Source: a virus | Direction: 5' to 3' (one strand) | DNA length: 46,964 nucleotides | Virus record (IMG/VR): IMGVR_UViG_3300029720_000024 | Part shown: positions 1 to 46,964 of the stretch, piece after piece | Numbering within the stretch: the first letter of the stretch is position 1 | Layout: every line of letters starts with the position of its first letter | Position numbers and translations under genes: made by a program | The notes under the pieces: model-generated | The model's database searches: none | Seen by the model: only the letters and a program-made list of their open reading frames with translations | What the model was told of the DNA's origin: nothing

Positions 1-99
1 GTATGTTTACGCATGATTCACCGTACCAAATGCATGATTTCCAGTTTTTGGCATGATACATGATTTTCATCATTTCAAACCATGCTTCACGGTATTCGG
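1..99. repeat. Terminal direct repeat, identical to 46866-46964. The contig is circular or terminally redundant, with a unique length of 46,865 bp.
   Basis: Both ends read gtatgtttacgcatgattcaccgtaccaaatgcatgatttcc...catgcttcacggtattcgg. Confidence 0.95.
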
Positions 100-865
100 G
101 AGCCTCGATTATAGCCCTCTGTAGCCACGCCTCGGCCTCTAATTGTTTTCCCTGTATGATTTTACACCGAGCAATGAAACGCATACTGGCGCCCCGCTCA
201 GGCGGCCACACGGCGCTTCTAAGGGCAAGATGTTTCTCCAGCGTTTCAATGGCCTTACTGTATTCCCGATGGAACATATATTCGCGGCCTAAGTAATGCA
301 TGTTTCGGTCGTTCTCCGGCTCTTCCTTAACCGCCAGCTCCAGAAGCGGCAGGTAATTGCTGCGGCTTTTCTTCTCATCGGGCCAATGGTCAACCCTCAG
401 CGGCAAATCGCAGTATGATTCTTCGCCGTATGATTTCAGCACTTCGTGAACGGGATTCTTCCAGTAGTATGATTTTGTATGAATTTTATCGGCGTTGAAT
501 GATACTCCGTCCCTGCCGTATGATTCATGGCTCCAAACATATAAATACCTTCCCCGCGTCCCGTGAAAGTTTTTCCGTATGATTTCCGCCCAGCCGGGCT
601 GTATGATTTCGTCCAGGTCGAGGCATACCAACACGTCCGCATCTTCCGGTATGATTTTCAATGATTCATTTCGCGCTACATCAAATCTCCACGGCTGTAT
701 GATTTTGGTTTTTACGATGCAGTTGTATGATTTCAGCTTATCAACGGTTTTGTCTGCGCTCCCCGTATCGAGAACGCAGACATAATCAGCCTCTTTTGCC
801 GTCTCATACCACCTGTCAACGAATTTTTCTTCGTCCTTAGCTATGGCATATACAGCTATTTTCAT
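1..865 (-). CDS. Glycosyltransferase (GT2-like N-domain plus TPR-like C-domain), 5' part. The CDS continues across the circular junction to 46666, giving 354 aa in total.
   Basis: Hand translation from the ATG at 865 gives MKIAVYAIAKDEEKFVDRWYETAKEADYVCVLDTGSADKTV..QPWRFDVARN..NPVHEVL..NYLPLLELAVKEEPENDRNMHYLGREYMF. The frame is open to base 1 and in frame with ORF 46666..46938 (865-73=792). It is missing from the ORF track because it runs off the window edge. The family is recalled from memory. Confidence 0.8.
   Translation of the reverse strand, partial: MKIAVYAIAKDEEKFVDRWYETAKEADYVCVLDTGSADKTVDKLKSYNCIVKTKIIQPWRFDVARNESLKIIPEDADVLVCLDLDEIIQPGWAEIIRKNFHGTRGRYLYVWSHESYGRDGVSFNADKIHTKSYYWKNPVHEVLKSYGEESYCDLPLRVDHWPDEKKSRSNYLPLLELAVKEEPENDRNMHYLGREYMFHREYSKAIETLEKHLALRSAVWPPERGASMRFIARCKIIQGKQLEAEAWLQRAIIEAPEYREAWFEMMKIMYHAKNWKSCIWYGESCVNI
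413..735 (+). repeat. Motif cluster I: 10 dispersed same-strand copies of ATGATT, 9 of them as GTATGATT[T/C], inside the glycosyltransferase CDS
   Basis: The A of ATGATT falls at 415, 430, 469, 520, 579, 603, 651, 661, 699 and 727. A near-copy lies at 479 and a lone copy at 156. Confidence 0.9.
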
Positions 866-1625
866 TTTCTCCCCTCAAAAAACAGTTGATGAAATAAATC
901 TGCCCTTTCCCCGTTACTTTCGGGGTGCGTGTTATTCTGGTGCTTCCGTCAGGGTTGGCTATAACCGTTTCCTTTATCTCAAAATATCCGGCTTCCATAG
1001 CCTTTTGGGTGGGCATATTCCAGTTTTCGCCCTTCTTGCATAACCAGCCGTTATCCCTCAACCATGTGAACATTCTGTTAGCCCCTATAGGCTTCCCGTT
1101 CTGGCGTATCATCTTAGCAAGCTGTCCCACTAAGCAACTATCGTGTGAGGCTTGCACGGCCTCCGCAAACAGCACTTTGGGGGCGTTGTGTTCTACTGTC
1201 GCTTCAAGCTCCTTCCGCCGCTCCTGCTCTTGTTTAAGGGCTGAAAACACCTTTATGGCGTTGGCGGGGTCGGCTATCATCTGTTCTATCGTGGTCGGTG
1301 TGGCGTACATACCATGTTTACGGATAGAGGGTATAACCTCATGCGTTACCCACCGCTTGAAGGCTTTTGCCTCCGGCTTGCGGGAGCCGAGCACAAGGGC
1401 ATATAATCCCGGCTCATTTACTATGGTTACTTCCTGCGTCCCTCCGGGGGTGTCGGTTAAAGCTACACCCTTTTCATCCTGTTCAAGGCGTGTTAATGCA
1501 TCACGGTTATTTGCGATTTCCAACGCCCGGCACACATCAGCCGCCACAAACCACGGTTCGCCATCCTTAATAGTAGTCCTTATCTCTCCAAACTGGTTGT
1601 TGTTAAATATCTGTAATTCGTTCAT
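837..1625 (-). CDS. Phage antirepressor (BRO-N domain plus KilAC/ANT C-terminal domain)
   Basis: MNELQIFNNNQFGEIRTT..PWFVAADVCRALE is BRO-N-like and the C-terminal ..NRMFTWLRDNGWL.. is KilAC-like. AAAGGAG lies 6 nt before the ATG at 1625. Confidence 0.8.
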   Translation of the reverse strand: MNELQIFNNNQFGEIRTTIKDGEPWFVAADVCRALEIANNRDALTRLEQDEKGVALTDTPGGTQEVTIVNEPGLYALVLGSRKPEAKAFKRWVTHEVIPSIRKHGMYATPTTIEQMIADPANAIKVFSALKQEQERRKELEATVEHNAPKVLFAEAVQASHDSCLVGQLAKMIRQNGKPIGANRMFTWLRDNGWLCKKGENWNMPTQKAMEAGYFEIKETVIANPDGSTRITRTPKVTGKGQIYFINCFLRGENENSCICHS

Positions 1626-1863
1626 TGTAACTCCTTTCATCACCTGTAATTTGGTCTATTAGCGCGTTTAGAACGTTTATGTTTTTGTAGATTATAGCAA
1701 AGGCCCCATTGCTCATTATCGAATAATTTGAGACATACTCCGATACCAAGAAATTATCCGTGTAGTCAAATACCGCTTGATTTACTGACGACTGTATATC
1801 CCTTGCCAATTCTAAGTCCATTGTTACTTTCTCCAATGCGCTGATTATTCGGGCTTTTTCCAT
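1603..1863 (-). CDS. Hypothetical protein
   Basis: ORF with GGAGG 8 nt upstream of the ATG at 1863. AT-richer than its neighbours. Confidence 0.5.
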   Translation of the reverse strand: MEKARIISALEKVTMDLELARDIQSSVNQAVFDYTDNFLVSEYVSNYSIMSNGAFAIIYKNINVLNALIDQITGDERSYNERITDI

Positions 1864-2275: not shown

Positions 2276-2902
2276 TCAAGCATAATTCAGCACCGTCAAT
2301 CTGTAACTGCCGTCATTATCCGGTGTGTCGTCAATCTGCACCGATTGGAGGATTATAAAAGCGGGGACAACCCCATTCGAGTACGAAGGGTTGCCGTAGT
2401 AGTTGGCGGAGCCGTCCGTGAAGACGTACCACGCGTTGTCAGAGGAGTACCGCGAAGAAAGCCACCAGTAGGCTGCCGAGCCGTTAAAGGTCTTTTTGCG
2501 GCTATTTCTTCCAGTAAATATAGGCCATGCTAAACCTTCTTCTATTCCTTCATTATCACCGTAGCCTACCATGGTCAACGTGGGGGCAAACACCTTGCGG
2601 GTTATATTCTCGGCGCCGCTGCCATTATATAACGAAATCGTGCTGGGGATAATCAGTTCTTTAAACTCGTCGGGGTAGCTGTTGTATATTTCTGTCATGC
2701 GTTTGTCCAGGTCTGATCCGACGTACTCCGTGCCGTTCCCGAACCGGCACAAGCTGTGTACCTCCTCGCGGATAAGCCCTGCGGTGCCTACGTCAAAATT
2801 ATTGAGGCAACCGAGGGTGTAGCCCGCCAGCTCGTAGGTTCCATCCTCGCGGCGCTCGGGGATTTTGATGTTGCTTCCGAATGGTAAATCGCTTATTCTC
2901 AT
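2276..2902 (-). CDS. DUF6273-like protein (WWLSS..GVVPAF motif), an inverted paralog of the N-terminal part of 45134..46243
   Basis: MRISDLPFGSNIKIPERRED.. and ..AYWWLSSRYSSDNAWYVFTDGS..NGVVPAF. Long identical nucleotide runs are shared with 45134-45742. Confidence 0.6.
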   Translation of the reverse strand: MRISDLPFGSNIKIPERREDGTYELAGYTLGCLNNFDVGTAGLIREEVHSLCRFGNGTEYVGSDLDKRMTEIYNSYPDEFKELIIPSTISLYNGSGAENITRKVFAPTLTMVGYGDNEGIEEGLAWPIFTGRNSRKKTFNGSAAYWWLSSRYSSDNAWYVFTDGSANYYGNPSYSNGVVPAFIILQSVQIDDTPDNDGSYRLTVLNYA

Positions 2903-2911
2903 TGTTTCCTC

Positions 2912-3403
2912 CTATTCCGGTATGTCTATGTATTTCATCATTCTGTCTATCGCACGTTCTTCAAGGTGCTCTATTGCCTTGGGGGATTTATCCATTTTTA
3001 CACCTACCCTGGTATTAGATGGCATATCCCGCGAATAGAAATGTTCGTAAAAGTTATATTTCAACTCGATTACCCTTCTCTGGTTCGCGGGGAACTCATC
3101 TAATGCAGCATCTATAAACGCCACGAATGACATATCATCGTTTATTTTTTCCAGCATTTCGGCCATTTGCAGATTATACCGCTCCTTTGCCGCCATGAGC
3201 TTTATAGCGCTCCGGGCAGTCGGGTCGGTAATGTCGCTGCCGTGCGGCATACCCGATAAAACCTGTGGGCGAATATCCGCTACCGCTTCCATTCTCTCTT
3301 TGATACTGGCTATTTTTTTATCTATTTCTTTCGCGTTTCTCTTGGCTTTCCCCCAACGAACAAGCAACCGCCTGATGTATGCCCGTTGTTCGCGTTTCGT
3401 CAT
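2912..3403 (-). CDS. Sigma-70 region-4-like / ArpU-RinA-type phage transcriptional regulator
   Basis: The C-terminal ..FPANQRRVIELKY.. followed by ..AIEHLEERAIDRMMKY resembles region 4. The pattern is recalled, not searched. Confidence 0.45.
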   Translation of the reverse strand: MTKREQRAYIRRLLVRWGKAKRNAKEIDKKIASIKERMEAVADIRPQVLSGMPHGSDITDPTARSAIKLMAAKERYNLQMAEMLEKINDDMSFVAFIDAALDEFPANQRRVIELKYNFYEHFYSRDMPSNTRVGVKMDKSPKAIEHLEERAIDRMMKYIDIPE

Positions 3404-5433: not shown

Positions 5434-5916
5434 TCACCTCCTGTCGTATTTACCGTTTTTCTGCCAGATCACAACCATGCTCGGGAACGGCGCCGGCATT
5501 GGTCGCCCATCGCGATCATGTATGGGCTTGCCCTCAATCTCGAATTTGAGCCGCCCACGGATGAAGCGAATTTCGGCTTTGCCGAGTATGTACTCGTGAA
5601 AGCTGGATCTGTCTGTCCGGGCGGGTATCAGCAGCACAACCGTTGTGTTGGGCTTCTGTGCCTCGCGGTAGCATTTCTCCGTCCATTGTCCTGTCTCCCT
5701 GTTACCATAAGGCGGATTGCAAAACACTGTTTCGCCCTGCCAATCTTGCAGCAAGCCGTTATCTTTTTTTGTGAAATACCGTTCGCATTTGTGGTTGGCG
5801 TCACTGGCCGCCGCGTCCAGTGTGAAATTAAACTCGGCGTTTAGTTCATCAAACAGGCTTTGCGGCGTTTCCCAATAGTCCTTGTCGCTCAAAAACATAG
5901 TGGTGAAATTAGTCAT
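5434..5916 (-). CDS. Phage N6-adenine DNA methyltransferase (Dam-like)
   Basis: DKDYWETPQSLFDELNAEFNFTLDAAAS.. and the FCNPPYG motif. AGGAGG precedes the ATG at 5916. Confidence 0.75.
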   Translation of the reverse strand: MTNFTTMFLSDKDYWETPQSLFDELNAEFNFTLDAAASDANHKCERYFTKKDNGLLQDWQGETVFCNPPYGNRETGQWTEKCYREAQKPNTTVVLLIPARTDRSSFHEYILGKAEIRFIRGRLKFEIEGKPIHDRDGRPMPAPFPSMVVIWQKNGKYDRR

Positions 5917-6211
5917 TTTCCTTGCCTCCTGTTTCTGCCGCCTCAATGCGCTTATTGAGCCGCTCAATCTTCTTGGTAATCCACTCTGTCATCTGCCCGC
6001 CTACGTTGAATATGCAGCAGAGCTGCCACAGCATTATCTGTACGTCAGCCATTTCCTCTGCAAGATGGTCAGAGTTCGGCTTGCCACGCAAAGCTTTGGT
6101 CAGTTCTTTTTGTAGCTCTGCACATTCCTCGATGGCGACTATGGTCTGGATGGGTTCGCCGTATTTCTCGATGGCTCTGCGCAGAATTTTCATTGTGTTT
6201 TTACTGTTCAC
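5909..6211 (-). CDS. MazG-like nucleotide pyrophosphohydrolase
   Basis: AIEECAELQKELTK...LAEEMADVQIMLWQL shows the EExxE..D pattern. Confidence 0.65.
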   Translation of the reverse strand: MNSKNTMKILRRAIEKYGEPIQTIVAIEECAELQKELTKALRGKPNSDHLAEEMADVQIMLWQLCCIFNVGGQMTEWITKKIERLNKRIEAAETGGKEND

Positions 6212-8370: not shown

Positions 8371-8518
8371 CCCAGTGTATATCCCAGCCGTTACCGTTGT
8401 CGGTGAAGGTCAACACGGTAACGCCATTAACACTTACAACGGCTTTTCCGTCCTTCATGTTGTCCATCACGCTCTGGAATATGGTTTGCGTTATCCACTT
8501 TGCGAGTTCTTCTGTCAT
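8363..8518 (-). CDS. Small hypothetical protein (51 aa)
   Basis: Hand translation gives MTEELAKWITQTIFQSVMDNMKDGKAVVSVNGVTVLTFTDNGNGWDIHWDE. Its ATGA start overlaps the DnaB stop. Confidence 0.4.
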   Translation of the reverse strand: MTEELAKWITQTIFQSVMDNMKDGKAVVSVNGVTVLTFTDNGNGWDIHWDE

Positions 8519-9750
8519 AGTTCCTCCCATTTCACAATTTCATCTTCGTACAGAAAATACTTTCCGTACCATTTCACGCTTAGTTCCCCGGTTCGCCCGT
8601 TTCGGTTCTTCGCCACGATGATGCTCGCGTCCTCGCTTTGCGGGTCGGGTCGGTGAAGGAATAATACCTCGTCCGCGTCCTGCTCTATGGCTCCCGATTC
8701 CCGCAAGTCCGATAGTCTCGGCCTTCCATCGTTCCGGCCTTCTATCGCCCTGTTGAGCTGGCACAGAAGAACGACAGGGGCATTCAGTTCCTTCGCCAAA
8801 AGCTTTATTTTTCGGCTTATGTCGGATACCTCATTTTCCCGCGTGCGGTTCCTCAGGCTGGATTGTATTAGCCCTAAATAGTCAATCGCTATGAGGTCTA
8901 ATTCCCGTTCCTGCTGCTTTATCGCGTAGCATTGTGACCTTATTGCCTCCACGGTATAGGCATTATCCGACAGATACAACCTTGTCGCGCTCAGTTTGCT
9001 TACGGCGTTCTGTATCCTGTCAACCGCTTCCTGACCGCCGCTAAACATTTCATCACGGCTGCACCTCGCATAGCTGATGATCGCCCTTTGAAGCACGTCC
9101 TCCCTCGGCATTTCCAGCGAAAACACCGCTACCGTCCTGTCGAACAACGCCATATTCACGGCTATATTCATGGCAAGTGAGGTCTTGCCTACTGACGGTC
9201 TGGCTCCGATGATGGTTAAATGCCCTCTTTTCAACCCGCCTAACGTCTGGTCGAGAACCTGAAACCCCGTTGTAAGCCCCTCAGCGCCGTTTATAAGCCC
9301 ATATAGGGCCGCGTCAAAGTCTTTCCCTACCCTGCTTACTTTACGCCCTCCACGCGCCCGTACAGCGTCTATAACGCCCTGCATACGGTCAAGGTATCCC
9401 TCGTCCTTTCCCGATTTCATGTCCTTGACCACTTCCCGCAGTCCCGAAATGGCGTGTCGCTTCCTGGATTCCTCCAGCACCACCTTGATGTGATAATCCA
9501 CATTTGCTGCTGATACAGTGCCGGTCACTATTTCCGTGATGTACTGTATCCCTCCGGCCCTGCCGCCCAGCTTGTCAGCTACCGTTACGGGGTCTACCGG
9601 CTCGTTTGCGTTGAAAAGGGCAAAGATAGCGGAAAATATCTCTTGGTGTTCCGGCCTCTCAAAATCGTCAGGTCTCAATTCCCCGCATATTCTCTCTAAA
9701 GCCTCACGACTGAGAAGCGCAGAACCTAAAACAGCTTTTTCGGCAAGCAC
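8515..9750 (-). CDS. dnaB: Replicative DNA helicase (DnaB family)
   Basis: N-terminal AEKAVLGSALL, Walker A GARPSVGKTS, ..LIAIDYLGLI.. and ..AKELNAPVVLLCQLNR... Confidence 0.9.
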   Translation of the reverse strand: MLAEKAVLGSALLSREALERICGELRPDDFERPEHQEIFSAIFALFNANEPVDPVTVADKLGGRAGGIQYITEIVTGTVSAANVDYHIKVVLEESRKRHAISGLREVVKDMKSGKDEGYLDRMQGVIDAVRARGGRKVSRVGKDFDAALYGLINGAEGLTTGFQVLDQTLGGLKRGHLTIIGARPSVGKTSLAMNIAVNMALFDRTVAVFSLEMPREDVLQRAIISYARCSRDEMFSGGQEAVDRIQNAVSKLSATRLYLSDNAYTVEAIRSQCYAIKQQERELDLIAIDYLGLIQSSLRNRTRENEVSDISRKIKLLAKELNAPVVLLCQLNRAIEGRNDGRPRLSDLRESGAIEQDADEVLFLHRPDPQSEDASIIVAKNRNGRTGELSVKWYGKYFLYEDEIVKWEEL

Positions 9751-10415
9751 AGTTTTTCGTAGACTGGATTATCCCATGATGAAGCGCAGGGGACTTCATC
9801 CTCCCAACGCCTTTGGTTCAAAAACGTTGCCGGATGAGGGATATATTGCCCATTGTCTTTTTTCCATTGTGGAGAAGCAGCATAGTCTTTTACTGCCGTT
9901 ACGATCTTCTCCTGCAATTCCTTTGGCGGGTTCAGTTTCTTCCATGCTTTCACAGCGGTTTCTTTCGCGGTGTGACGTGGATACACTTTCCAGAAAACAT
10001 CAAAGCCATCACAAGGGGGTATGGGGGTTATCCCTTTATTGTCTTCTGTCTTATGTCTTCTGTCTTCTGTCTTATGTCTTATGTCTTTAGTAGGCTTAGC
10101 TTTGCTTTCGCTTGCTTCATTTTGCTTAGCTTTGCTTTCGCTTGCTTCATTTTGCTTAGCTTTGCTTTCGCTTGCTTCTGCTGGTTTTCCGCCTTTCGCG
10201 CCGTTTTCCGACCTAATAGCGGATATTTCAGCCTCTCGGTCTATTATTGCCTTGAATATCGGAAACACAAGGCTCTCTCTTCCTCCGTCTTCAGGTATCA
10301 GGCCTGACCGCGCATATTCCAGTATGGCGATAAATAGCCTGCCTTTTTCAGCATCAGAAAGAGCGGATGTTTGCTCTATCCAGTCGTAATAGGCCTTGAC
10401 GTAGCGTTTTGCCAT
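9726..10415 (-). CDS. Replication-module protein (DUF6291-like N-terminus, conserved FW..YP..RWEDE C-terminus) with internal tandem repeats
   Basis: MAKRYVKAYYDWIEQTSALSDAEKGRLFIAILEYA.., three copies of ASESKAKQNE, RHKTED repeats, and ..FLNQRRWEDE. Confidence 0.6.
   Translation of the reverse strand: MAKRYVKAYYDWIEQTSALSDAEKGRLFIAILEYARSGLIPEDGGRESLVFPIFKAIIDREAEISAIRSENGAKGGKPAEASESKAKQNEASESKAKQNEASESKAKPTKDIRHKTEDRRHKTEDNKGITPIPPCDGFDVFWKVYPRHTAKETAVKAWKKLNPPKELQEKIVTAVKDYAASPQWKKDNGQYIPHPATFLNQRRWEDEVPCASSWDNPVYEKLCLPKKLF
10040..10088. repeat. Seven contiguous heptads TGTCTTN
   Basis: tgtcttc tgtctta tgtcttc tgtcttc tgtctta tgtctta tgtcttt, lying inside CDS 9726..10415. Confidence 0.9.
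10095..10181. repeat. Tandem 30-bp repeat, about 2.9 copies (cttagctttgctttcgcttgcttcattttg)
   Basis: Read directly. It encodes the ASESKAKQNE repeats on the minus strand. Confidence 0.9.
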
Positions 10416-11637: not shown

Positions 11638-12231
11638 TTAAGCCCCCTTTGCGTTCAGCTTGTCGAGCGTGGTGCTTAACTGCTCCCGCGTCATATTCCA
11701 CACGTCCACACCGTAGTTCTTTTTCGCCGCTTTATTGGCTAAGTCCACGCTCCCCTTACACAGGGCTATAACTTCTTCCTGCATGGCCTTTATCTCAGGG
11801 TCGGAGGAAAAGTTGTCGTACACGTTGGGCTTGAATTTCGGCTCGTCCTCCGGTAAATCCTCTCCGGCGTAAAGGTACAGCCCCAGGCCGTGACGGGCGA
11901 TTGCCTTTGTGATTGACCTCTGTATGGCCTTGTTAATGTCTGTTGACGTTACCTTTTCAAGGGGTATGCTATGGTTCTTGTAGTCCATGACCGGCAATTC
12001 CTCAATGTGTTCTATGCCGTTTACGGTTACTCCGGTCTTAACCCAACAGGTTTTTCCGTCCGTGAAGTAATTCCAATCGTCTTTATTGTGGTAGATGGTA
12101 GATATGGCGTCGGGGTGGAGCTTCTTTAATTCTCCCCACGCATACGCCCACGAGAGATAATCCAGCCCGTTCTTCTTCTCCACCTTGTCCTTGACGTTGA
12201 CGGAATTAAGTTCTGAAAAATAGTTCTCCAT
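11638..12231 (-). CDS. Rad52/Sak-like single-strand annealing protein (DUF1071-type)
   Basis: ..GLDYLSWAYAWGELKKLHPDA.. and ..AIARHGLGLYLYAGEDLPE. It is adjacent to Gp157 and SSB. Confidence 0.6.
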   Translation of the reverse strand: MENYFSELNSVNVKDKVEKKNGLDYLSWAYAWGELKKLHPDAISTIYHNKDDWNYFTDGKTCWVKTGVTVNGIEHIEELPVMDYKNHSIPLEKVTSTDINKAIQRSITKAIARHGLGLYLYAGEDLPEDEPKFKPNVYDNFSSDPEIKAMQEEVIALCKGSVDLANKAAKKNYGVDVWNMTREQLSTTLDKLNAKGA

Positions 12232-12238: not shown

Positions 12239-12739
12239 TCACTTTATCTGCAAATTCTGCTTTACAACGATTTCCGCGCCCTCTGCCGTCCCGCCGGATT
12301 TCAGAAGCTCCTTTATCGCCGTTTTGTTAGGCACGGGGGGCTTATAGGTCAGAAGCTCGTCATGCCCCTGCGCCGCCCACTTTATAAAGGCTTCCTCGTT
12401 TACCTCGACGCTTTCTGACTTTCTGAATGTCAGCTTGTTCCGCTTGCTTTCAAACTTTTCCTTATTGGATAGCTGCATCTGCGTTGCAAGGTAGCCTTTA
12501 AGCCACTCGGCCTTATTGGCTTTAGCCTTGGCTCTGGCGGTGAGGTTGTCGGCTTCCTCCTTGATGCTCTTTGCCTCTGCGGCAAGGTTCTTTATCATGC
12601 AGGCCACGTTGTCAATTTTGTCATCGAGCTGCATATCAAGGCTTTCGAGGGTGTCATACACGGCTTCTTCGGGTATCTCTCCACGGTCAACCGCGTCCAT
12701 GAAGTCATTGAGATTCTTCGCTACGTCGTAAAGTGACAT
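12239..12739 (-). CDS. Siphovirus Gp157-family protein
   Basis: MSLYDVAKNLNDFMDAV..DTLESLDMQLDDKIDNVACMIKNLAAEAKSIKEEADNLTARAK.. matches the recalled Gp157 pattern. Confidence 0.7.
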   Translation of the reverse strand: MSLYDVAKNLNDFMDAVDRGEIPEEAVYDTLESLDMQLDDKIDNVACMIKNLAAEAKSIKEEADNLTARAKAKANKAEWLKGYLATQMQLSNKEKFESKRNKLTFRKSESVEVNEEAFIKWAAQGHDELLTYKPPVPNKTAIKELLKSGGTAEGAEIVVKQNLQIK

Positions 12740-16439: not shown

Positions 16440-16741
16440 CTATTCTACCTCCAAACACTTGTTCTGTTTTGATAATAACACGTTAGATTCAAAAAGAAAG
16501 GGGGAATTTGTATGAGAGTACCATAAACGGGACTGCGCTCGCCGATGTTGCACAAATCGTGCCTCAAATTTAATCGGCAGGGGCGATTTCTCACCCCCGC
16601 CTAAGACGGTGGAGAAGCATCGGGGAACCGTCCTGAATAAAGCATAGCATTTATGCCGCTCAAATCAAATACTCATAAAATAGCATTCGCTAACATTCTT
16701 GTTTTTTCGCCATAAATAAATGAAGAAGGTGATACCCATTG

Positions 16742-17137
16742 ATGTTATATGAGCGTTTACGCGCCATGAAAGGCGATATGACGGCGCAGCAGATAGCGGA
16801 CAAAAGCGGCGTACCCGTTGCCACGGTAAACCGTGTGCTTCAGGGCTTAACGGAAAATCCGGGGTTTGATACGGTCTACAAACTGGTAAAGGCCATGGGC
16901 GGGAGCCTGAACGATCTGGACGAGGATAGGGTGTGTGAGCCGGAAGGATCGACGCAGCTATACGAAAGAGGGTTAGAGTACAGGGAGCGGAAGATAGAGG
17001 ATTTGGAGCAGAAGATAAAGAAGCTGGAACGCATAAAAGCTATAATAGTGGTATCTATCCTTATAGCAATGGTAGTGGCAATGGGCTTATTGGTATATGA
17101 CATAATGCACCTCGATAGAGGGTGGATAATAAAATAA
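16742..17137 (+). CDS. Membrane-tethered XRE-type HTH protein (HTH, coiled coil, C-terminal TM helix)
   Basis: MLYERLRAMKGDMTAQQIADKSGVPVATVNRVLQG.., ..KIEDLEQKIKKLE.. and IIVVSILIAMVVAMGLLVY. Confidence 0.65.
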   Translation: MLYERLRAMKGDMTAQQIADKSGVPVATVNRVLQGLTENPGFDTVYKLVKAMGGSLNDLDEDRVCEPEGSTQLYERGLEYRERKIEDLEQKIKKLERIKAIIVVSILIAMVVAMGLLVYDIMHLDRGWIIK

Positions 17138-17229: not shown

Positions 17230-18339
17230 ATGGCAAGGCAAAGTGACGGCAGATACCGGGCTAAAGTCACCGTCGGGCGGGCTGACGGCAAGAGCATAGT
17301 AAAGTACGTTTCCGGGCGCACAAGAAAGGAGCTGGAGGCCGCGAAGGAGGCGGTCAGGCAGGAGTTCATCACCGGGCGCACCGCACAGAAGGACGCGCTT
17401 TTCGGCCCATACGCCATACAGTGGTATAACGTCTACAAAAAGCCGAGCATAAAGGAATCGGCACAGAGCGGATATAAGACGGCACTCAACAAGCACATAT
17501 TGCCTGTTCTGGGGGACAAGCGGCTCACCGCAATATCCACTATGGACTTGCAGGAGCTGCTTAACTCCAAGGGCGATATGTGCGTAACCATAATCGAAAA
17601 TGTACACCATGTGTTAGAATCCGTCTTTAAGCGGGCATACTCCGAGGGGATAATCCAGCGGGACGTGACCGTGGGGCTGGTCAAGCCCACGAAAGAAAAG
17701 TCAAGCCGCCGGGCACTGACGGAAGCGGAGGAAGCGGCGGCAAAGAAGTTGATGCAGGAGGAAAACGGCCTGCTGGTGGCATTGCTATACTATACCGGAA
17801 TGAGGCTCGGTGAAGCCCTCGGCCTGCAATGGGAATGTGTAGATTTCAAGAAGAATGTCATACACGTCCGGCAGCAGGTCAATTTAAGGAAGGGCATGAT
17901 AACCCCGCCCAAGACGAAGGAGAGCATACGGGATATACCCCTGCCGGACGAGCTGGCGGAAATGCTCGTGCGGGGATTCCCGCAGGCGTTTGTATTCCCC
18001 GCCCCCGATGGAACATACTACCGCAATTCCTCTTCAAATAGGCTATGGCGTTCGCTGATGGAGCGCATGGCAGAGTTGGGGCCCGACATAGAAACGAGAG
18101 AGGACGGCGCCTCCGTCCTCACGCCGCACTACTTCCGGCACAATTACGCCTCCATACTCTATAATGCCGGCGTTGACGTGCTTTCTGCGCAGAAATTCCT
18201 CGGCCATGCCAACGTAAAGGTGACGCTTGAAATTTATTCACACCTTTCAAAGGAAAAAGAGGACGCAAGCGCGGGCGCAGTTATGGACGCTTTCAAAAAA
18301 AGGTTGCCGGAAAGTTGCCAGAGCAAAAGCACAAAATGA
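17230..18339 (+). CDS. int: Tyrosine recombinase / phage integrase
   Basis: ..ALLYYTGMRLGEALGLQW.. and ..HYFRHNYASILYNAGVDVLSAQKFLGHANVKVTLEIYSHL. Confidence 0.9.
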   Translation: MARQSDGRYRAKVTVGRADGKSIVKYVSGRTRKELEAAKEAVRQEFITGRTAQKDALFGPYAIQWYNVYKKPSIKESAQSGYKTALNKHILPVLGDKRLTAISTMDLQELLNSKGDMCVTIIENVHHVLESVFKRAYSEGIIQRDVTVGLVKPTKEKSSRRALTEAEEAAAKKLMQEENGLLVALLYYTGMRLGEALGLQWECVDFKKNVIHVRQQVNLRKGMITPPKTKESIRDIPLPDELAEMLVRGFPQAFVFPAPDGTYYRNSSSNRLWRSLMERMAELGPDIETREDGASVLTPHYFRHNYASILYNAGVDVLSAQKFLGHANVKVTLEIYSHLSKEKEDASAGAVMDAFKKRLPESCQSKSTK

Positions 18340-18552
18340 GCACAAGCAATCAAAAAAGCCCTAAATACCTAAGAAAAACGCCCGTGCAGCACGAGCGTTT
18401 TTGATGTTTGGTATCCGGCGGCTACCCGTTTTTTATTCAATTCCTTGCAGTTTCTCGTCCGTAAAAAGCGGCTGTTTATCTATATTTTCCGTTTGCGCTC
18501 GTTTTAGGGTTTGAAATAAAAGGTTGCCAGAAAGTTGCCGGAAGGTTGCCAG
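18295..18552. repeat. Two blocks of 11-bp-phased RGTTGCCR repeats flanking the int terminator (candidate attP arm sites)
   Basis: aaaaggttgccggaaagttgccag at 18298-18321 and aaaaggttgccagaaagttgccggaaggttgccag at 18518-18552. Confidence 0.5.
18374..18403 (+). terminator. Rho-independent terminator after int
   Basis: AAAAACGCCCGTgcagcACGAGCGTTTTT: one stem mismatch, followed by a T-run. Confidence 0.6.
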
Positions 18553-18984
18553 TTACGCAGTAAAATATTTTTCAACCTTGAAATCCTTACCGTCTATATC
18601 GTTAATGAAATCTTTTGCAAGGCTGAAATAAAACTCCGGGTCTTCTCCCCTGCCTACCATTTCGGCGGTATCATGGCTGTCGTTGTAGTACATATTCATG
18701 CACAGATAGTATTTGCATACCGCCGTTATTCCCTTCGTCGCCAGAAACGCCTTGATGGTATCATAGTCCCATTTTTGACCGTATGGGCGCATACCCTTGA
18801 CTATCTGCCGCGCCTCTTCGGGAGTTATCCGATATGCTATTTCTTCGAGGCAATACATCGTTTCTCTGTACACCTCCGGCAGACGGTCCTTTACCGTGTG
18901 CATCATATCAGAGAGCGCATCGGTCACTTCTGCCATATCGGTGTGCCTTTCGGATATCAGGCGTATGATCTCCTTAAAGCTCAT
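18553..18984 (-). CDS. Hypothetical protein (cargo module)
   Basis: 143-aa ORF whose TAATG start overlaps the upstream stop. Confidence 0.55.
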   Translation of the reverse strand: MSFKEIIRLISERHTDMAEVTDALSDMMHTVKDRLPEVYRETMYCLEEIAYRITPEEARQIVKGMRPYGQKWDYDTIKAFLATKGITAVCKYYLCMNMYYNDSHDTAEMVGRGEDPEFYFSLAKDFINDIDGKDFKVEKYFTA

Positions 18985-24354: not shown

Positions 24355-24969
24355 TTATATTGGTATCGTGAGTGTTACGTAGCCGTCGCCACCTTTTTGA
24401 GCCGTACCGCTTGTTGGAGTGTTCGAAGTTTTCCCTTCTCCACCATTAGGCGCACCCCCTGGAGCGGTTTGGTATGCACCAAACTTAGCATCACCATTTA
24501 ATCCATTAGGTACGCCTCCAACTCCACCATAAGCATGTTGGTGGTTGTCAGAGCAGTTCACGTTAGCACCCTTGCCGCCCGTTGTTGTTATCCCAAAGGC
24601 AATCGTATCGCCACCATCCGATGCAATTACAGCATAATTTTGCTGACTACTATTTCCAGCACCACCCGCACCTATGATAATATCATATACACCAGCAATA
24701 ATTTTCATTTTAACTGTTTGATGCCCGCCGCCACCACCACCGCCACAACCCAATGTCCCAACATTGTACGCAGCAGCGGATACACCCCCACCGCCACCAG
24801 CCAACAGGTAAACATCAGCCATAACCGAACCGCTGACATTCAGTGTGCCAGAAGATGTAAGTTTTATAACGCGCTTTGAGCCTTCTATCTTGTCCGTAAA
24901 TTGGCCTGTGTAGGTAAACTCAAAAGCGCCGCCGCCACTCATCAGCCTCCTTCGTAGCATACCTATCAT
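24355..24969 (-). CDS. Glycine-rich fibre/receptor-binding-region protein
   Basis: ..[32 protein letters not shown]... Its ATGA start overlaps the collagen-like gene stop. Confidence 0.6.
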
Positions 24970-27476
24970 GCGCTCACAACCTCCTGTACTGCCCACACGC
25001 CATTGTATACGTCAAATTCATAGGTCTTGCTTGCCTCTATTGCCGGGGCCGCGCCCATAAATGTGCCGCTAAATGACACTGATACACTACTACCCGTAGT
25101 AAATTTACCGTGCGCCCAGCCGGATGTTGGCGGGGTAAACACATACGTACCCACAGGAGAGGATACGTTATATATGGTATTTGCCGTCAGCGCCGCGCCG
25201 CTGGCGGGGAGGGAGGAAGCTATAACAGGCGGGGTCAGATAGTCCACGCCGCCCTCGGCCTGCGCCACCTTGCCGCCCGCGCCCTTGAGCAGGCCGTTAA
25301 TGCTGGTCGCGGTATCGGCGGTTATCTCGTTAGGGCCAGCGGGGCCCTGTTCGCCCTGTGCGCCAGTGTCGCCTTTCGCTCCCGTGTCGCCCTTTGCCCC
25401 CTGCGGGCCTTTGATGCTGACGCTTGCGGGGTTATCCAGCCCGCCGTTATTTGTCCATGAGAGTATGCCCTCGGCAGAGACAGCGGGGGTAAAATACGGC
25501 CCGGTGTCGCCCTTGGGGCCGTCCGCGCCCTTGGGGCCTTGGATACCCTGCGGGCCTTGCTCGCCCGTATCGCCCTTCGCGCCGGGGTCGCCTGTCGCGC
25601 CTTTTTCGCCTGTCGCGCCCTGCGGGATGCCGAACTCAAAATCAAATACCTTTGCGGTGTCCGCGCCGCTTGCCGTTACCTTTACGGTGGCGGCGGCTCC
25701 GGCGGCGAGGGTGTTTACCGTGGCGGTGGGCGTGCCAAACCCTGCGGCTGTGCCGGGGTCGCCTTTTGCGCCGGGGTCTCCCTGCGGGCCTTGCTCGCCC
25801 TGTATGCCCTGTTCGCCCTGTATGCCCTGCTTGCCTTGTATGCCCTGCGGGCCTTGCTCTCCGGCGGGGCCGCGCTCACCCGTGAGGCCCTGCTCTCCCT
25901 GCGGGCCTTTTATGTTGGCGTCGGGGGGATTAGCGAGACCGCCGTTATTGCTCCATGATATAACGCCCTCGGCGGATACCGAGGGGGTAAAGTAGGGGCC
26001 GGGGTCGCCCTTTGCTCCAGCGTCTCCTTTCGCTCCCTGATCTCCCTTTGCGCCCTGCTCACCAGTCGCACCCTGTTCGCCCTTGGGAACGCCGAACTTA
26101 AAGGCGAATACCTTCGCGGTATCTGCGCCGGAAGCTGTTACCTCTACAGTAGCGGGGGTTCCCGCGTCAAGGGTGGTCGCCGTAGCGGTAGGTGTGCCAA
26201 ATCCGGCGGCTTCGCCCGTGGGGCCTTGTTCGCCCCTTGCTCCCGTGTCGCCCTTCGCGCCGGGGTCTCCCTTGGGGCCCGTATCGCCTTTAGGGCCAGT
26301 GGGGCCTTGCTCACCTTTTGCGCCCTGCAAGGGGCCGTTGTTTACCCACTTGGAATTTACGCCGTCCCAGATATATATATCATACGGTTCGCCCGCGCCC
26401 ACGCCGTAAGCGTCGCCAGCGGAGGGGTTAGATACTCCGGCTTGTAATGCGGAGAGGGAAGCGTAATAGCCCAACACGGCAAATCCTTCGCCCGTATCGC
26501 CCTTGGCTCCCTGTGCGCCCTGTGGCCCCCTTATATTGACTGTGGCGGGGGTTTCCAGCCCGCCGTTATTACTCCACGATAAATCGCCGTCAGCGGTCAC
26601 AGAGGGCGTATAGTGCGCTCCTGCGGGGCCTCGTTCGCCCGTGGCTCCCGTATCGCCCTTGGGGCCCGTTTCTCCCTTATCTCCGGGGTCGCCTTTAGGG
26701 CCTTGGATACCCTGCTCACCCTTGGGGCCAGCGGGGCCCGTTTCTCCTGCGGCTCCTGTGTCGCCTTTATCGCCTTTCTTGCCTTCGGGGCCTTGGGGGC
26801 CGACGGGGCCAGCGTCGCCCTGCAAGCCTTTCTTGCCCTCCGGGCCTTGTGGGCCGATAGGGCCTTGCTCACCACGGGGGCCTTGCAAGCCTTGTATACC
26901 CTGTTCGCCCTTGGGGCCTACCGCGCCCTGTTCGCCCTTGGGGCCTTGTATTCCTGCGGGGCCTTGTACACCCTGCGGGCCTTGGGGGCCTGTGGGGCCT
27001 ATTTCACCCTGCGGGCCTGTGGGGCCTGTCGCGCCTAACGCCTGGGATACTAATTCCTGCACCTCGGCAAGAAGCTGTTCCGCCACACTGGGGGTGGGAA
27101 GGTTGGAACCGGGAAGGTCGGCTATTATCTCAATGGGCCGCGTTCCCGTCCACTTGGCTATGATGTTCTTCTCATCGTTCGCCAGAGTGGCTAAAAGCGT
27201 GAGGTTCATCATGCCCCGCTTGCCCGTAAACAGCGGCGTGATATGCCATGTAAGGGTTATATCTTCCCCCACATCTTTATACAGCACATACCTTGCTTCC
27301 GTGCCGTCCATGGGCCAATACGCCTTTATGGTGAACCCTGCGGCGGCAAGGTCTACGTCACGGGCATCTAAGGGTATGCTGATAGTGACGGTATCCGCCA
27401 GACTTTCACCCTCGATAACAAGGGACTGTATAGGGGTGGTGAGAAGATACTTTCCGTCAACCGTTATTCTGTGCAT
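24966..27476 (-). CDS. Collagen-like tail fibre / baseplate upper protein (BppU-like N-terminus, G-X-Y tracts, repeated globular modules)
   Basis: Long [16 protein letters not shown].. tracts, three [20 protein letters not shown] modules and two [22 protein letters not shown] modules. Confidence 0.8.
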
Positions 27477-38756: not shown

Positions 38757-39383
38757 TTATGCCTTCTCTGGCGTAAAATAGCACCGGCAATTAGGGTGTT
38801 TTGTCGGTATTTTGTCTATTGGATAAATTTTTCCGTTGCGTTCTTCACACTCTTTGCAGACTTTTTCATCGTTCTGTGTGTGCCACTTGATTTTTTTATA
38901 ACCGTTGTCCTTAAAGGCCCTTATTACGGTCTTATCTTCAACGGTGATGGCGAATTGGTCTGTTTGCCTTGTCACATAGTTTAATCCCCGCGTGAAATCC
39001 TGCTTTATAGGGGGATAATTGACGGTAGGGGGGTCTTTGCCGGAGTACTCGGCATCTGCGATTATGGATTCAGCCAATCTTGCCCCCTTTCGTTCCAGTT
39101 CTTTTGTGAAAACATATTTAACAACAGGGTCGTAATCGTCCAGAATACCTATTACCCACGCTTCGAGTATCCTATCCGGCCCGTTATGGTCTGCGTATGC
39201 TTTCTTGGCTATATCCAAGTACGCTTCTTCGGATAATCTCAGGATTTTTCTGTACAGAAGATTTATCTGGTCGATTACCTTTGTGTTGGAATCAATATAA
39301 AAGAGCGTTTCCTTAGTTTTCAGAAACGCCCTCGTTATTGTTTTTTTCAGGCTCTTCGCCCGTTCGTCCCCGTACTCGTACAT
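38757..39383 (-). CDS. Minor head protein (SPP1 gp7 / Mu F-like)
   Basis: C-terminal KWHTQNDEKVCKECEERNGKIYPIDKIPTKHPNCRCYFTP. Confidence 0.75.
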   Translation of the reverse strand: MYEYGDERAKSLKKTITRAFLKTKETLFYIDSNTKVIDQINLLYRKILRLSEEAYLDIAKKAYADHNGPDRILEAWVIGILDDYDPVVKYVFTKELERKGARLAESIIADAEYSGKDPPTVNYPPIKQDFTRGLNYVTRQTDQFAITVEDKTVIRAFKDNGYKKIKWHTQNDEKVCKECEERNGKIYPIDKIPTKHPNCRCYFTPEKA

Positions 39384-42468: not shown

Positions 42469-42930
42469 CTATACATCACCGCCAGACCGTCCAAAACCGC
42501 CCCTAATCACTCTATCAGCGTCGGCCTGGGCGACCTCTACCCGCACCCCGTCAATGTCCCCACAGCGGCTCAAAATAGCCAGCGCGGCGGCCGTAGAATC
42601 CCGTGCGTAGGGGGCGTTTAGGTTTTTTTGTAGCACAAGTTGCGCCCTTGCCCTCATGCGCTGGTAGAACTTATCATCCTGCGCGTTGCGCAGTGCGGTT
42701 TGCCTGTCCAGCTCCTCCGCAAACAAGGGGAACTCGTTGAACCACCGTGTTATATTGGATTTGTGCACCCCTACCTTTTGGGCTAACTCTGATTTGGTGT
42801 CTATATAATGGGTGCTGCCGTCCTCCTGCTCCTCACCCCATACCCATAACCGGATTGCTTTTTTTTGCTCCTCGGTGAGCTCTGGCCTCTGTCGTGGCTG
42901 GCCTCTATACTGATCTTTGCTGCTTGCCAT
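42469..42930 (-). CDS. terS: Terminase small subunit (HTH type)
   Basis: ..KSELAQKVGVHKSNITRWF... It is the first gene of the late operon. Confidence 0.6.
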   Translation of the reverse strand: MASSKDQYRGQPRQRPELTEEQKKAIRLWVWGEEQEDGSTHYIDTKSELAQKVGVHKSNITRWFNEFPLFAEELDRQTALRNAQDDKFYQRMRARAQLVLQKNLNAPYARDSTAAALAILSRCGDIDGVRVEVAQADADRVIRGGFGRSGGDV

Positions 42931-43157: not shown

Positions 43158-43186
43158 TTGACTTTTTAATCTGATGGGTATATAAT
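43158..43186 (+). promoter_or_regulatory. Consensus promoter P1: TTGACT, 17-nt spacer, TATAAT
   Basis: TTGACTttttaatctgatgggtaTATAATatagacat. Confidence 0.75.
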
Positions 43187-43720: not shown

Positions 43721-43796
43721 CGCAGAGTGACGCCCGCAAGGGCGGTAATGCGGCAGGCCGGTCACAAGCCCGGCGGCAAAAAGGAGGATGCGAAAC

Positions 43797-44270: not shown

Positions 44271-44296
44271 GAGGGCTATATCAGCCCTCTTTTTTC
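44270..44296. terminator. Bidirectional hairpin terminator shared by convergent genes
   Basis: AGAGGGCTatatcAGCCCTCT followed by TTTTT. The 3' arm encodes the end of the RHH gene. Confidence 0.7.
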
Positions 44297-44460: not shown

Positions 44461-44478
44461 GTTATCACCTCCGCAAAC

Positions 44479-44507: not shown

Positions 44508-44551
44508 GTATATCTTTCTAATTCTTTAAGGCTTTTCCCTTAATATTTCAG

Positions 44552-44580
44552 TTGACTATATACTCCCGTAAGTATATAAT
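44552..44580 (+). promoter_or_regulatory. Consensus promoter P2: TTGACT, 17-nt spacer, TATAAT
   Basis: TTGACTatatactcccgtaagtaTATAATagagacat. It shares gtaTATAATa(t)agacat with P1. Confidence 0.75.
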
Positions 44581-45133: not shown

Positions 45134-46243
45134 ATGAGAATAAGTGATTTACCATTCGGAAGCAACATCAAAATCCCCGAGCGCCGCGAAGATAGAACCT
45201 TTAAGCTGGCGGACTACACCCTGGGCTTCTTCGGCGCAGGCACCGCCGGGCTTATCCGCAAAGACATATATGATAACCGTGTCTGGGTTGGCAACAGCGC
45301 GGAGTACGCCGGATCAAACCTGGACAAACGCATGACGGAAATATACAACAGCTACCCCGCCGAACTTAAAGAGCTGATTATCCCCAGCACGATTCCGTTA
45401 TATAACGGCAACGGCGCCGAGGATATAACCCGCAAGGTGTTTGCCCCCACGTTGACCATGGTAGGCTGCGGCGACAACCACGGCGTAGAAGAAGGTTTCA
45501 CATGGCCTATATTTACCGATCAGAATAGCCGAATAAAGACCTTTAACGGCTTTGAAAGCAATTGGTGGCTTTCCTCGCAGTACTCCTCTGACGATGACTG
45601 GTTCGTCCGCACGGACGGCTCCGCCAAAAACATTCGCTCGTATATTGATTTCGGAGTTGTCCCCGCTTTTGTAATCCCCCAATCGGTACAGATTGACGAC
45701 ACACCGGACAAGGACGGCAGCTACAGATTGACGGTGCTGAATTCCGGCAAATATCTGTACGGGGCCGAGCTGTCAAAGGCGATTCGGGAGGAGCTGAAGC
45801 GTCAGGGCATTAAGGGCGTAACGGTGAGCTGTAAGACCTACTCCGGCGGGCAGTCCGTAAGAGTTAGGGTCAACGCTACCGCGACCGACTTCGTGAGCCG
45901 TGACGAATACATTAATAATTATAGCTGTAACGATATAGGTTACTGGCTTTATACTGAGGACGGCGAACAGATACACCGTGAAAAATGGTTTGCATTAGAC
46001 GGAGACGAGCAGCAGCGCACGCTCCGCAGCCATGCCGCCCGCGAGTATGATTTTTACATCTCCGGCAGTCACGACATTAACCATTACAAGATTGAGAACA
46101 GTAAAATCTATACTGAGGCGTTTCGCGCTAAACTGAGCCGGATTAACGCTGTGCTGGATACATTCCACTACGATGACAGTAACAGCATGGTTGATTATTT
46201 CGACACTAATTTTTACCGCAATATAACGGTTGTGGCGGCGTAA
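45134..46243 (+). CDS. DUF6273-like N-domain fused to a polyvalent-protein-type (LPD-like) C-terminal domain
   Basis: The N-terminal ~200 aa are paralogous to 2276..2902. C-terminal ..AIREELKRQGIKGVTVSCKTYSGGQSVRVRV... The same GGAGGAAACA ATG start region is shared. Confidence 0.6.
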   Translation: MRISDLPFGSNIKIPERREDRTFKLADYTLGFFGAGTAGLIRKDIYDNRVWVGNSAEYAGSNLDKRMTEIYNSYPAELKELIIPSTIPLYNGNGAEDITRKVFAPTLTMVGCGDNHGVEEGFTWPIFTDQNSRIKTFNGFESNWWLSSQYSSDDDWFVRTDGSAKNIRSYIDFGVVPAFVIPQSVQIDDTPDKDGSYRLTVLNSGKYLYGAELSKAIREELKRQGIKGVTVSCKTYSGGQSVRVRVNATATDFVSRDEYINNYSCNDIGYWLYTEDGEQIHREKWFALDGDEQQRTLRSHAAREYDFYISGSHDINHYKIENSKIYTEAFRAKLSRINAVLDTFHYDDSNSMVDYFDTNFYRNITVVAA

Positions 46244-46279
46244 AGCCGCCCCCGCCGTATGATTTTAAGGAGGTACAAT

Positions 46280-46507
46280 ATGAAAAACTTCTATATCGCG
46301 TTTTCTGCGCAGCAGAACGGGAAGTATTGGGCAGGGACTATGACAGTCAGCAGCGATGATAACATCATGAACATCTCGCGGAGGATCGCCGGAATGCAGG
46401 CCGCTAACCTCTGCGCAACAAGAAAAGCCGCTAAAGAGCTGGCGGATTGTTGGAATGAGTGCTTCAGACGTAACGGGACGAGCATTTACACGGAGGGCAT
46501 AGCATGA
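46280..46507 (+). CDS. Hypothetical protein
   Basis: TAAGGAGG before the ATG at 46280. MKNFYIAFSAQQNGKYWAG... Confidence 0.55.
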   Translation: MKNFYIAFSAQQNGKYWAGTMTVSSDDNIMNISRRIAGMQAANLCATRKAAKELADCWNECFRRNGTSIYTEGIA

Positions 46508-46689
46508 TGCGTTATCAGGTTATTATATGGACAAGGGGCGAGGGGCACGACGAGCGGCGGGAGTTTAGTACCCTCGCCCAAGCTCGCGCCGCCGCCCGTA
46601 TCTACCGCCGAGAATGTGACGGCGTGGGGATATATGATTTCCGGCTTGGGGTCGTGCGGGAGACCTTAGGACGGTTTCCCGATATATGA
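46504..46689 (+). CDS. Small hypothetical protein. Its 3' end overlaps the glycosyltransferase 3' end by 24 nt.
   Basis: 61-aa ORF whose ATGA start overlaps the upstream stop. Confidence 0.45.
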   Translation: MMRYQVIIWTRGEGHDERREFSTLAQARAAARIYRRECDGVGIYDFRLGVVRETLGRFPDI

Positions 46690-46964
46690 TTGCATGATTT
46701 TCACATTCTGCATGATTCTTTCATCAGGGCCGTACATCAACGCATGATTTGCCGCTTCCAGAGCGTCCCTATAGCGGCCTACGTTACAATAGGCTATGGA
46801 CAGCATATCAAACGGCAGCGGCCCCCACGGGTCAGGCTCACAAATGTATGATAGCGGCCTTTCCCGTATGTTTACGCATGATTCACCGTACCAAATGCAT
46901 GATTTCCAGTTTTTGGCATGATACATGATTTTCATCATTTCAAACCATGCTTCACGGTATTCGG
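46666..46964 (-). CDS. 3' part of the same glycosyltransferase-TPR CDS (46866-46964 duplicates 1-99)
   Basis: The track ORF MMKIMYHAKNWKS..ERPLSYICEPDPWGPLPFDMLSIAYCNVGRYRDALEAANHALMYGPDE is TPR-like and in frame with the 5' part. Confidence 0.8.
   Translation of the reverse strand, partial: EYREAWFEMMKIMYHAKNWKSCIWYGESCVNIRERPLSYICEPDPWGPLPFDMLSIAYCNVGRYRDALEAANHALMYGPDERIMQNVKIMQSYIGKPS
46684..46964 (+). repeat. Motif cluster II: same-strand copies, mostly the GCATGATT variant. It continues through the junction into 1-67.
   Basis: The A of ATGATT falls at 46686, 46694, 46712 and 46744, then at 13, 34 and 60 (duplicated at 46878, 46899 and 46925). Confidence 0.9.
46866..46964. repeat. Second copy of the 99-bp terminal repeat (same as 1-99)
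   Basis: Base-for-base identity with 1-99 on reading. Confidence 0.95.

Follow-up and report, generated by a model that had tools for sequence, protein, structure and literature searches.

The window analysed here, the whole 46,964-nt stretch of virus record IMGVR_UViG_3300029720_000024, represents the circular genome of a temperate siphovirus of human-gut metagenomes (46,865 bp, followed by a 99-bp terminal overlap). It carries one dense island of a short DNA word, GYATGATTT, whose 20 to 21 copies all lie on the same strand. Spanning about 1.4 kb, the island lies at the distal end of the early operon, mostly within the last gene of that operon, which encodes a glycosyltransferase with tetratricopeptide repeats (TPR), and it is the last conserved DNA before a variable cassette and the terminase genes. 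It appears to be a cis-acting DNA signal and is not a protein or codon feature. Synonymous null models, conservation among natural variants and counts in homologues showed that the signal is real, strand-polar and under both purifying and directional selection, as expected of the strand-specific nucleic-acid signal that an initial annotation of this DNA had proposed. As to its reader, we tentatively favour, with a probability of roughly 0.3, a co-oriented Chi-like signal recognised by a host helicase-nuclease that enters from the packaging-site end.

The word and selection on it

The glycosyltransferase coding sequence (CDS), formed by joining 865 to 1 with 46865 to 46666 on the minus strand, comprises 1,065 nt and 354 aa; its product matches PF00535 and TPR repeats, and phrog_13126 across its full length. 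The initial annotation had reported 18 ATGATT hexamers on the plus strand of this gene, and every one of them was found at its position, together with the four degenerate near-copies (Table 1). The CDS contains no AATCAT on the plus strand, which bears out the absence of opposite-strand copies, and the distribution of the word over the three codon phases (9/8/1) was likewise correct. The first copy starts 133 nt into the gene, and the additional matches at 46878, 46899 and 46925 are duplicates of those at 13, 34 and 60 because of the 99-bp overlap. The array had been described as confined to the CDS or to positions 1-735, which was too narrow: strong copies run from 46259 through the circular junction to 727, with a weaker one at 46047, so that three copies (46634, 46259 and 46047) lie downstream of the stop codon. 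The proposed consensus G[T/C]ATGATT[T/C] was right in its core, while the informative word proved to be longer, about 9-10 nt, reading C-Y-G-Y-ATGATT-T-Y on the plus strand and R-A-A-A-T-C-A-T-R-C on the coding strand, which encodes both the early and the late operon. The word is an asymmetric consensus of 9-10 nt with an invariant 6-nt core, and CYGTATGATTTY is the form of it that we suggest as a probe for binding assays.

A weight-matrix scan of the genome on both strands (listing threshold, 9 bits) placed all sites above 13 bits within 46259→727 on the plus strand, giving a single discrete island of 20 copies from 46259 to 735; nothing comparable was found on either strand of the remaining 45 kb. 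Thirteen of the 14 copies between 1 and 735 scored 13.7-17.9 bits, and the copy at 661 fell below the 9-bit threshold. Outside the CDS the bare hexamer ATGATT occurs 10 times on the plus strand and 7 times on the minus strand, and 8 of the 10 plus-strand copies lie at 43403-46634, beyond the stop codon. The copies are spaced irregularly, 8-259 bp apart, and no helical phasing was obvious by eye, the inspection involving no formal test; the 259-bp gap corresponds to the most conserved block of the protein. The copies disregard gene boundaries and coding strand, being found on the sense strand of the glycosyltransferase gene, antisense to convergent genes and in intergenic DNA. The copy at 46634 is in a convergent open reading frame (ORF), that at 46259 in the spacer before the ribosome-binding site of the next ORF, and that at 46047 in a DUF6273 gene.

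Codon or dipeptide bias as the source of the array was ruled out by two synonymous nulls and a count of encodable sites. Shuffling synonymous codons within the gene (5,000 runs) yielded 5.7 ± 1.7 copies with a maximum of 12, and redrawing the codons from the phage's own usage yielded 1.56 ± 1.2 with a maximum of 7, against the 18 observed. AATCAT is present at 18 of the 19 positions where the protein could synonymously encode it. By comparison, 115 homologues (47-56% identity) can encode the word at just 2.2 ± 1.7 places (maximum, 6), and they lack both the word and its tripeptides; the protein itself has therefore been remodelled. The number of encodable positions was 19 here, 18 in a relative of 85% identity, 13 in one of 68% and 6 in one of 66%. 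Alignment revealed the substitutions that create the word (KGY→KSY, KVI→KII, NED→ESY, KTN→KSY, ERC→ESC, ERA→NHA and RIR→RIM), and roughly 16 tripeptides compatible with the motif have arisen in an enzyme that is otherwise conserved. The description of the protein as an ordinary family member with the word laid over permissive codons thus understated how far it has been rewritten. A tandem or amino-acid repeat was ruled out by the irregular spacing, the use of three codon phases and the copies outside the CDS. The earlier statement that no amino-acid repeat is involved was upheld, and codon bias discounted, by the three phases, the synonymous nulls, the conservation of third positions and the poverty of homologues in encodable sites.

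Purifying selection was apparent among 26 distinct variants of the CDS from IMG/VR that are 96-98% identical. Variable bases made up 4/108 of the core (3.7%) and 128/957 of the remaining CDS (13.4%, p = 0.002), and at third codon positions 2/36 were variable in the motif (5.6%) versus 89/319 elsewhere (27.9%, p = 0.002), so that motif bases were about 4-5 times less variable than others. Among the tolerated changes is A/G at the consensus R. All 18 copies were present in 21 of the 26 variants, and the other five had 17.

Relatives and the history of the island

The copy number declines with divergence among relatives of the phage. Counted as CDS plus downstream, there are 18+3 copies here, 16+2 in L040 (85% protein identity), 11+4 in L041 and L042 (68%) and 4+2 in L043 (66%), followed by two at 56% and none at 49%. 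The lineages form a stepwise series of 6, 15, 18 and 21 copies in which site occupancy is nested with lineage-specific gains, pointing to stepwise accumulation, and a larger number of copies seems to be an advantage. The centre of the array falls, in each lineage, close to the 3' end of the gene and to the convergent junction, with copies spreading out on both sides, and the orientation of the word relative to terS and terL is the same in all four lineages. The feature is lineage-specific and strongly selected, and its evolution can be read with unusual clarity. It provides an unusually clean natural case of a non-coding DNA signal overriding a protein sequence, with intermediate stages kept in related lineages, and it pinpoints a specific 9-10-nt word and its strand in a widespread group of human-gut phages that has no cultured host.

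The phage L400 (72% TerL identity) has no glycosyltransferase gene. The equivalent 1.2 kb of this relative, made up of a sigma-like regulator gene with the flanking DNA as far as the convergent junction, carries six co-oriented AATCAT copies, compared with one in the other 14.7 kb. Because the island extends past the stop codon and is present in L400, it marks a genome position and not the glycosyltransferase gene; the signal belongs to the end of the early operon, 2.3-3.7 kb before terS. Both the glycosyltransferase gene and the array are missing from relatives with 61-65% TerL identity. The word is identical in lineages whose TerS proteins are 47-60% and sigma-like regulators 28-53% identical, and its constancy where the phage's candidate DNA-binding proteins diverged favours a host-encoded reader.

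A search for arrays of other words in the relatives with 61-65% TerL identity yielded just origin-like iterons and, in the divergent region preceding terS, compact repeats. The compact repeats are lineage-specific: ACTATATATAGTA occurs three times in L390 (7658-7790), ATATAGCTATGCTAC four times in L392 (5367-5540) and GGGAAGCTGTG six times in L394 (26-492). Those of L390 and L392 lie within the divergent intergenic region where the late operon begins, and all three are candidate late-regulator or pac sites.

The Chi-like reading and its rivals

A word that is asymmetric, co-oriented, indifferent to spacing and to genes, dependent on number and located at the far map end from terS best fits a polar signal for a translocating host enzyme. 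The initial annotation had listed a polar Chi-like role and a TerS or pac role among its possibilities; the former is viable and favoured, and the latter is possible but weaker. Under the favoured reading, a host helicase-nuclease of the AddAB/RecBCD type would enter at a double-strand end generated at the packaging site. This could be the end that stays unpackaged after the first pac cut or, in injected DNA, the end proximal to pac. The enzyme would then cross the cassette, come upon the words of the island from their 3' side and be switched from degradation to RecA loading, the many copies making recognition near-certain. An AddAB-type enzyme would read the 3'-ended strand as 5'-RAAATCATRC-3', which is the orientation seen in all four lineages. 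Packaging proceeds from near terS towards terL in SPP1, P22 and lambda, and we infer the same start and direction here, with the island starting 3.1-3.7 kb from the TerS gene, presumably on the side that is not packaged first. Assuming this direction, the first-cut end and the pac-proximal injected end would both expose the cassette and then the island. The irregular spacing also suits a signal for a translocating enzyme better than cooperative side-by-side binding.

Chi sequences are short (5-8 nt), asymmetric and used in one orientation; their defining property is over-representation with replication-strand skew in the host chromosome, and they are recognised by the host RecBCD or AddAB enzyme, whose nuclease activity they attenuate. 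The present word, with its 6-nt core within 9-10 nt, lies on one strand only. In phages LLS (E. coli) and MD8 (Pseudomonas), 20-32 Chi sites share a single orientation and cluster towards the genome end at which RecBCD enters (Zheng et al. 2025, PMC12315714). The island resembles these in consisting of a short asymmetric word with nearly all copies in one orientation, which overlies coding sequence and has accumulated through selection, with multiplicity being useful. Its position at the far end from terS, opposite the terminase genes, and its strand would match the terminal placement of Chi in LLS and MD8 if packaging runs from terS to terL. The differences are equally clear. All copies here are in one 1.4-kb island at one copy per 68 bp, a density about 25 times higher than that of LLS, which averages roughly one copy per 1.9 kb of genome and in which Chi is spread genome-wide, as it is in MD8. 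The word here is also A/T-rich and not a known Chi, and the phage has a recombination module of its own, which LLS-type phages do not; among lambdoid phages the Chi-rich genomes are those without one (PMC12315714).

Several of these points, with others, weigh against the Chi-like reading. The word contains no G on the proposed active strand, and known Chi sequences are G-rich. The phage encodes a Sak annealing protein, Gp157 (labelled 'Gam-like' in PHROG) and SSB, and so does not share with Chi-rich phages the lack of a recombination module or RecBCD inhibitor. The word shows no enrichment beyond the island, unlike the genome-wide Chi of LLS and MD8, and the island stands 2.3-3.7 kb from terS and not at the very end. 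Finally, most copies are in the early transcript, which leaves room for a role in sense-strand RNA. If the reader is an AddAB-type host enzyme, the word would be the first candidate Chi for the host, presumably an uncultured gut Firmicute; a Chi-like function would carry the 'terminal Chi cluster' strategy over to phages of Firmicutes equipped with recombinases of their own and could matter for evading nuclease-, CRISPR-adaptation- or Argonaute-based defences. It is also conceivable, at about one chance in four, that the island represents a new class of cis element, a dense array of a polar word that is recognised by a machine whose response to sequence signals in phages was not previously known. 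Candidates would be a Clostridial helicase-nuclease with an unprecedented A/T-rich Chi, a decoyed defence translocase, or control of replication forks or of the packaging motor.

Protein-binding explanations seem less probable. In one, which we consider rather unlikely, the word would be a TerS site and the island an extended pac onto which oligomers of TerS are loaded ahead of the first cut. The island does lie between the early and the terminase genes in a fixed orientation to terS and terL in all lineages, the TerL is of the PBSX/SPP1 headful type, and TerS carries an N-terminal helix-turn-helix, the putative recognition helix of which shows partial conservation; directly upstream of terS, where more distant relatives have a compact repeat cluster, none was found here. 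Short repeated words near packaging genes are familiar from P1, whose pac consists of 7 short hexamers, and from the pacL and pacR boxes of SPP1; such repeats are recognised by the small terminase and sometimes lie inside coding sequence, and packaging of Sf6 initiates over about 1.8 kb. Known pac sites, however, are compact (<300 bp) with fewer than 10 repeats, and all characterised ones lie, to our knowledge, in or beside terS, whereas this island spans 1.4 kb and is separated from terS by 2.3-3.7 kb of a cassette that differs between lineages. Its twenty or so copies far exceed those of any characterised pac site, the word does not change across TerS proteins that are just 47-60% identical, and irregular spacing is a poor fit for wrapping round a ring oligomer. 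An equally doubtful proposal is that a monomeric sequence-specific DNA-binding protein, of phage or host, coats the island as a polar barrier at the junction of early operon and cassette, either stopping transcription or stalling forks, perhaps thereby triggering concatemer-forming replication. Asymmetric, co-oriented and numerous sites with a strong orientation bias relative to transcription recall the stoperators of mycobacteriophages L5 and Bxb1, the island is centred on a convergent junction that lacks an intrinsic terminator here and has one in relatives, and the copy number grows outward from that junction. Stoperators are 13-bp sites that block elongation; they are scattered over intergenic gaps throughout the genome and have the same sequence as the early-promoter operator. 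The island copies are instead clustered and mostly intragenic, and the word is absent from the immunity region, from the early promoters and from the region upstream of terS. The candidate binders are poorly conserved (the regulator is just 28-53% identical), neither helical phasing nor regular spacing is obvious by eye, and relatives with terminators at the junction still keep the island. Should TerS or another protein nevertheless be the reader, the island would be a new architecture of packaging or insulation signals.

No intrinsic terminator was found between the converging genes in this lineage, and L041, L043 and L400 have hairpin terminators at the convergent junction. Both hairpins of L041 carry U-tracts in the antisense direction, with two motif copies between them, so antisense (plus-strand) transcripts should not cover the array there; L043 has a bidirectional terminator ahead of its downstream copies. 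An RNA target on the plus strand, one of the roles first proposed, is therefore unlikely. A sense-strand element, with RAAAUCAURC in the early mRNA offering many binding sites, as a sponge, to a small RNA or an RNA-binding protein, or serving as the target of a sequence-specific endoribonuclease (such as a toxin or abortive-infection RNase), we regard as improbable but deserving mention: strand specificity is natural for an RNA signal, the sense transcript of the last early gene includes 18 of 21 copies here and 11 of 15 in L041, and no terminator here keeps that transcript from the downstream copies. In L041 and L043, however, copies persist past terminator hairpins and into convergent genes, and in the sense RNA the word is predicted to be no more single-stranded than composition-matched octamers, an apparent accessibility signal having vanished with these controls. 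A search of the window against Rfam gave no family at the island, its sole match being a twister-P5 at 43721-43773 outside it, and no cognate small RNA or RNA-binding protein was found. Occurrence on coding and non-coding strands of different genes, together with the terminator, accessibility and Rfam results, favours a DNA-level signal, and we infer that the word acts as DNA rather than RNA. That the island has no function and is a by-product of codon or dipeptide bias, an amino-acid repeat or a local mutational process is very improbable and has largely been refuted. The word does coincide with the recurring tripeptides K-S-Y, K-I-I and K-I-M, and an unrelated tape-measure gene clusters AATCAT purely through a P-Q-I-I repeat. 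Against this stand the three codon phases, the intergenic copies and those on the non-coding strand of other genes, synonymous nulls that are far exceeded, conserved third-position bases in the motif, and homologues without word or tripeptides. Enrichment of the same word in L400, where the gene is absent, also argues against a gene-level by-product.

Three further roles considered earlier found no support. Iteron and titration arrays (the lambda origin in gene O, P1 incA, E. coli datA) are likewise direct repeats that can lie inside a gene and whose number matters; iterons, however, are 17-22 bp long and match the repeats of the origin, and the island word differs from the origin-like iterons of this phage, which lie at 10040-10180 in a replication gene. 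The ω (ribbon-helix-helix, RHH) heptads of pSM19035 are similar in being 7-bp A/T-rich words resembling ATCA. They form contiguous WATCACW runs of 7-10 in promoter regions, whereas the island has AATCAT(R)(C), with a core of AATCAT and not ATCAC, in non-contiguous copies 8-259 bp apart and outside promoters, which speaks against an ω-type or centromere role. A site for an RHH or XRE repressor is not supported either, since the immunity region (14.7-17.2 kb) contains no copy of the word; the weight matrix gave no site above 9.0 bits there, and the single match, at 14998, scored 9.0.

Genome context and searches elsewhere

The features of the window are collected in Table 1. The glycosyltransferase-TPR gene (865→46666 through the origin) is the final gene of the early operon, and its 3' end is overlapped by 24 nt by the ORF at 46504-46689. 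In relatives the sigma-like regulator is directly upstream of the glycosyltransferase gene, or of the island when that gene is absent.

Table 1 Positions of the motif island, its copies and other features in the window
Feature	Position	Strand	Remarks
Motif island, part 1	1..735	+	14 GYATGATT(T/C): 13, 34, 60, 156, 415, 430, 469, 520, 579, 603, 651, 661, 699, 727
Degenerate copies in part 1	53, 479, 499	+	
Motif island, part 2	46259..46865	+	continuous with part 1 across the circular junction
Part 2 copies in the CDS	46686, 46694, 46712, 46744	+	degenerate copy at 46848
Part 2 copies past the stop codon	46634, 46259	+	
Weaker outlying copy GAGTATGATTTTTA	46047..46052	+	11.6 bits; 3' end of the convergent DUF6273 gene
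Assembly overlap	46866..46964	+	identical to 1-99
Glycosyltransferase-TPR CDS, 5' part (codons 1-288)	1..865	-	start codon 865-863
Glycosyltransferase-TPR CDS, 3' part with stop codon	46666..46865	-	
Ant/Bro antirepressor	837-1643	-	early operon
DUF6273 ('Hoc-like') gene	2276-2902	-	early operon
Sigma-like (phrog_36) late regulator	2912-3403	-	early operon
Methyltransferase	5434-5967	-	early operon
DnaB	8515-9750	-	early operon
Replication initiator	9726-10415	-	early operon
HNH and SSB genes		-	early operon
Sak annealing protein	11638-12231	-	early operon
Gp157/'Gam-like'	12239-12739	-	early operon
Repressor-like gene	16739-17137		
Integrase	17230-18339		
Portal	39313-40779	-	tail genes also on the minus strand
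TerL	40776-42194	-	
TerS (small terminase subunit)	42469..42930	-	packaging site presumed in or just upstream
Cassette converging on the glycosyltransferase gene	43211-46689	+	two strong sigma-70-type promoters
Strong sigma-70-type promoter TTGACT-17-TATAAT	44552..44580	+	drives the convergent cassette towards the island
DUF6273 gene of the convergent cassette	45122-46243	+	
Final two small ORFs of the convergent cassette	46259/46284-46507 and 46504-46689	+	carry island copies 46259 and 46634

The word was also sought in other genomes. A three-copy scan of IMG/VR with GTATGATT found irregular arrays in this phage clade only, the remaining matches being regular tandem repeats, and a scan of GTDB gave regular tandem repeats alone among the at least 120 matches listed. 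With a looser AAATCAT pattern, the matches listed were AT-rich chance hits, except for a single GC-rich one that derives from the P-Q-I-I repeat of a tape-measure gene. In L405 (10985-11254) such a P-[QE]-I-I repeat of the tape measure produces a cluster of AATCAT in one reading frame, a protein-level repeat that provides a contrast to the island. Three direct repeats of ATCTGTATGATTTY at exactly 31-bp spacing were seen at 3936-4003 of L182 and also in L173, L186, L194, L206 and L238; they are intergenic and iteron-like, and the contigs are unrelated and apparently of a Bacteroidetes-like gut origin. The 11-mer equals the best island copies, and we judged the triplet to be a probable coincidence of the search pattern and not a related array.

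No host DNA was found beside the integrase in IMG/VR or ENA/Logan, or at the flank of the gene on the att side, and the window contains no tRNA. The contigs examined for a host flank were all at most 50 kb or concatemer-like. TerL homologues came from metagenomes only, with the nearest cultured phages at no more than 37% TerL identity, and neither an NCBI genome match nor a cultured relative was found. In the long contigs IMG/VR 3300045988_108204 (150,893 bp) and _115933 (74,151 bp), as well as in L317 and L562, phage DNA continues across the integrase/att junction, which suggests concatemer-like assemblies of related variants and not prophages flanked by host DNA. Many IMG/VR contigs stop 50-270 bp past the integrase or the DUF7841 gene, which in the window flank the interval 18340-18553; this is consistent with an attachment site that splits integrated and circular assemblies. 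Contig ends inside the glycosyltransferase gene were rejected as physical termini, as they are storage-chunk boundaries.

The tandem direct repeats at 10040-10180, which are of TGTCTTN type and GCTT-rich 10- and 30-mers, include TGTCTTCTGTCTTATGTCTTC twice and GCTT-rich 30-mers three times and probably mark the origin of replication; several independent contigs from ENA/Logan terminate no more than about 60 bp from 10,500. The two DUF6273 ('Hoc-like') genes lie on opposite strands on either side of the island region, and the relatives L344, L346 and L347 have extra copies near their tail genes, so that DUF6273 looks like a mobile accessory domain. The Type-P5 twister ribozyme (RF02684; plus strand, 65 bits, E = 2e-11) directly follows the ORF at 43211-43720, with a strong promoter at 43158-43186 before it and a terminator at 44269-44291 after it. 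The mean G+C of the genome is 0.495 and GC skew tracks gene orientation only; G+C peaks at 0.64 at 25000-27000, inside an 836-aa tail or fibre-like ORF (24966-27476).

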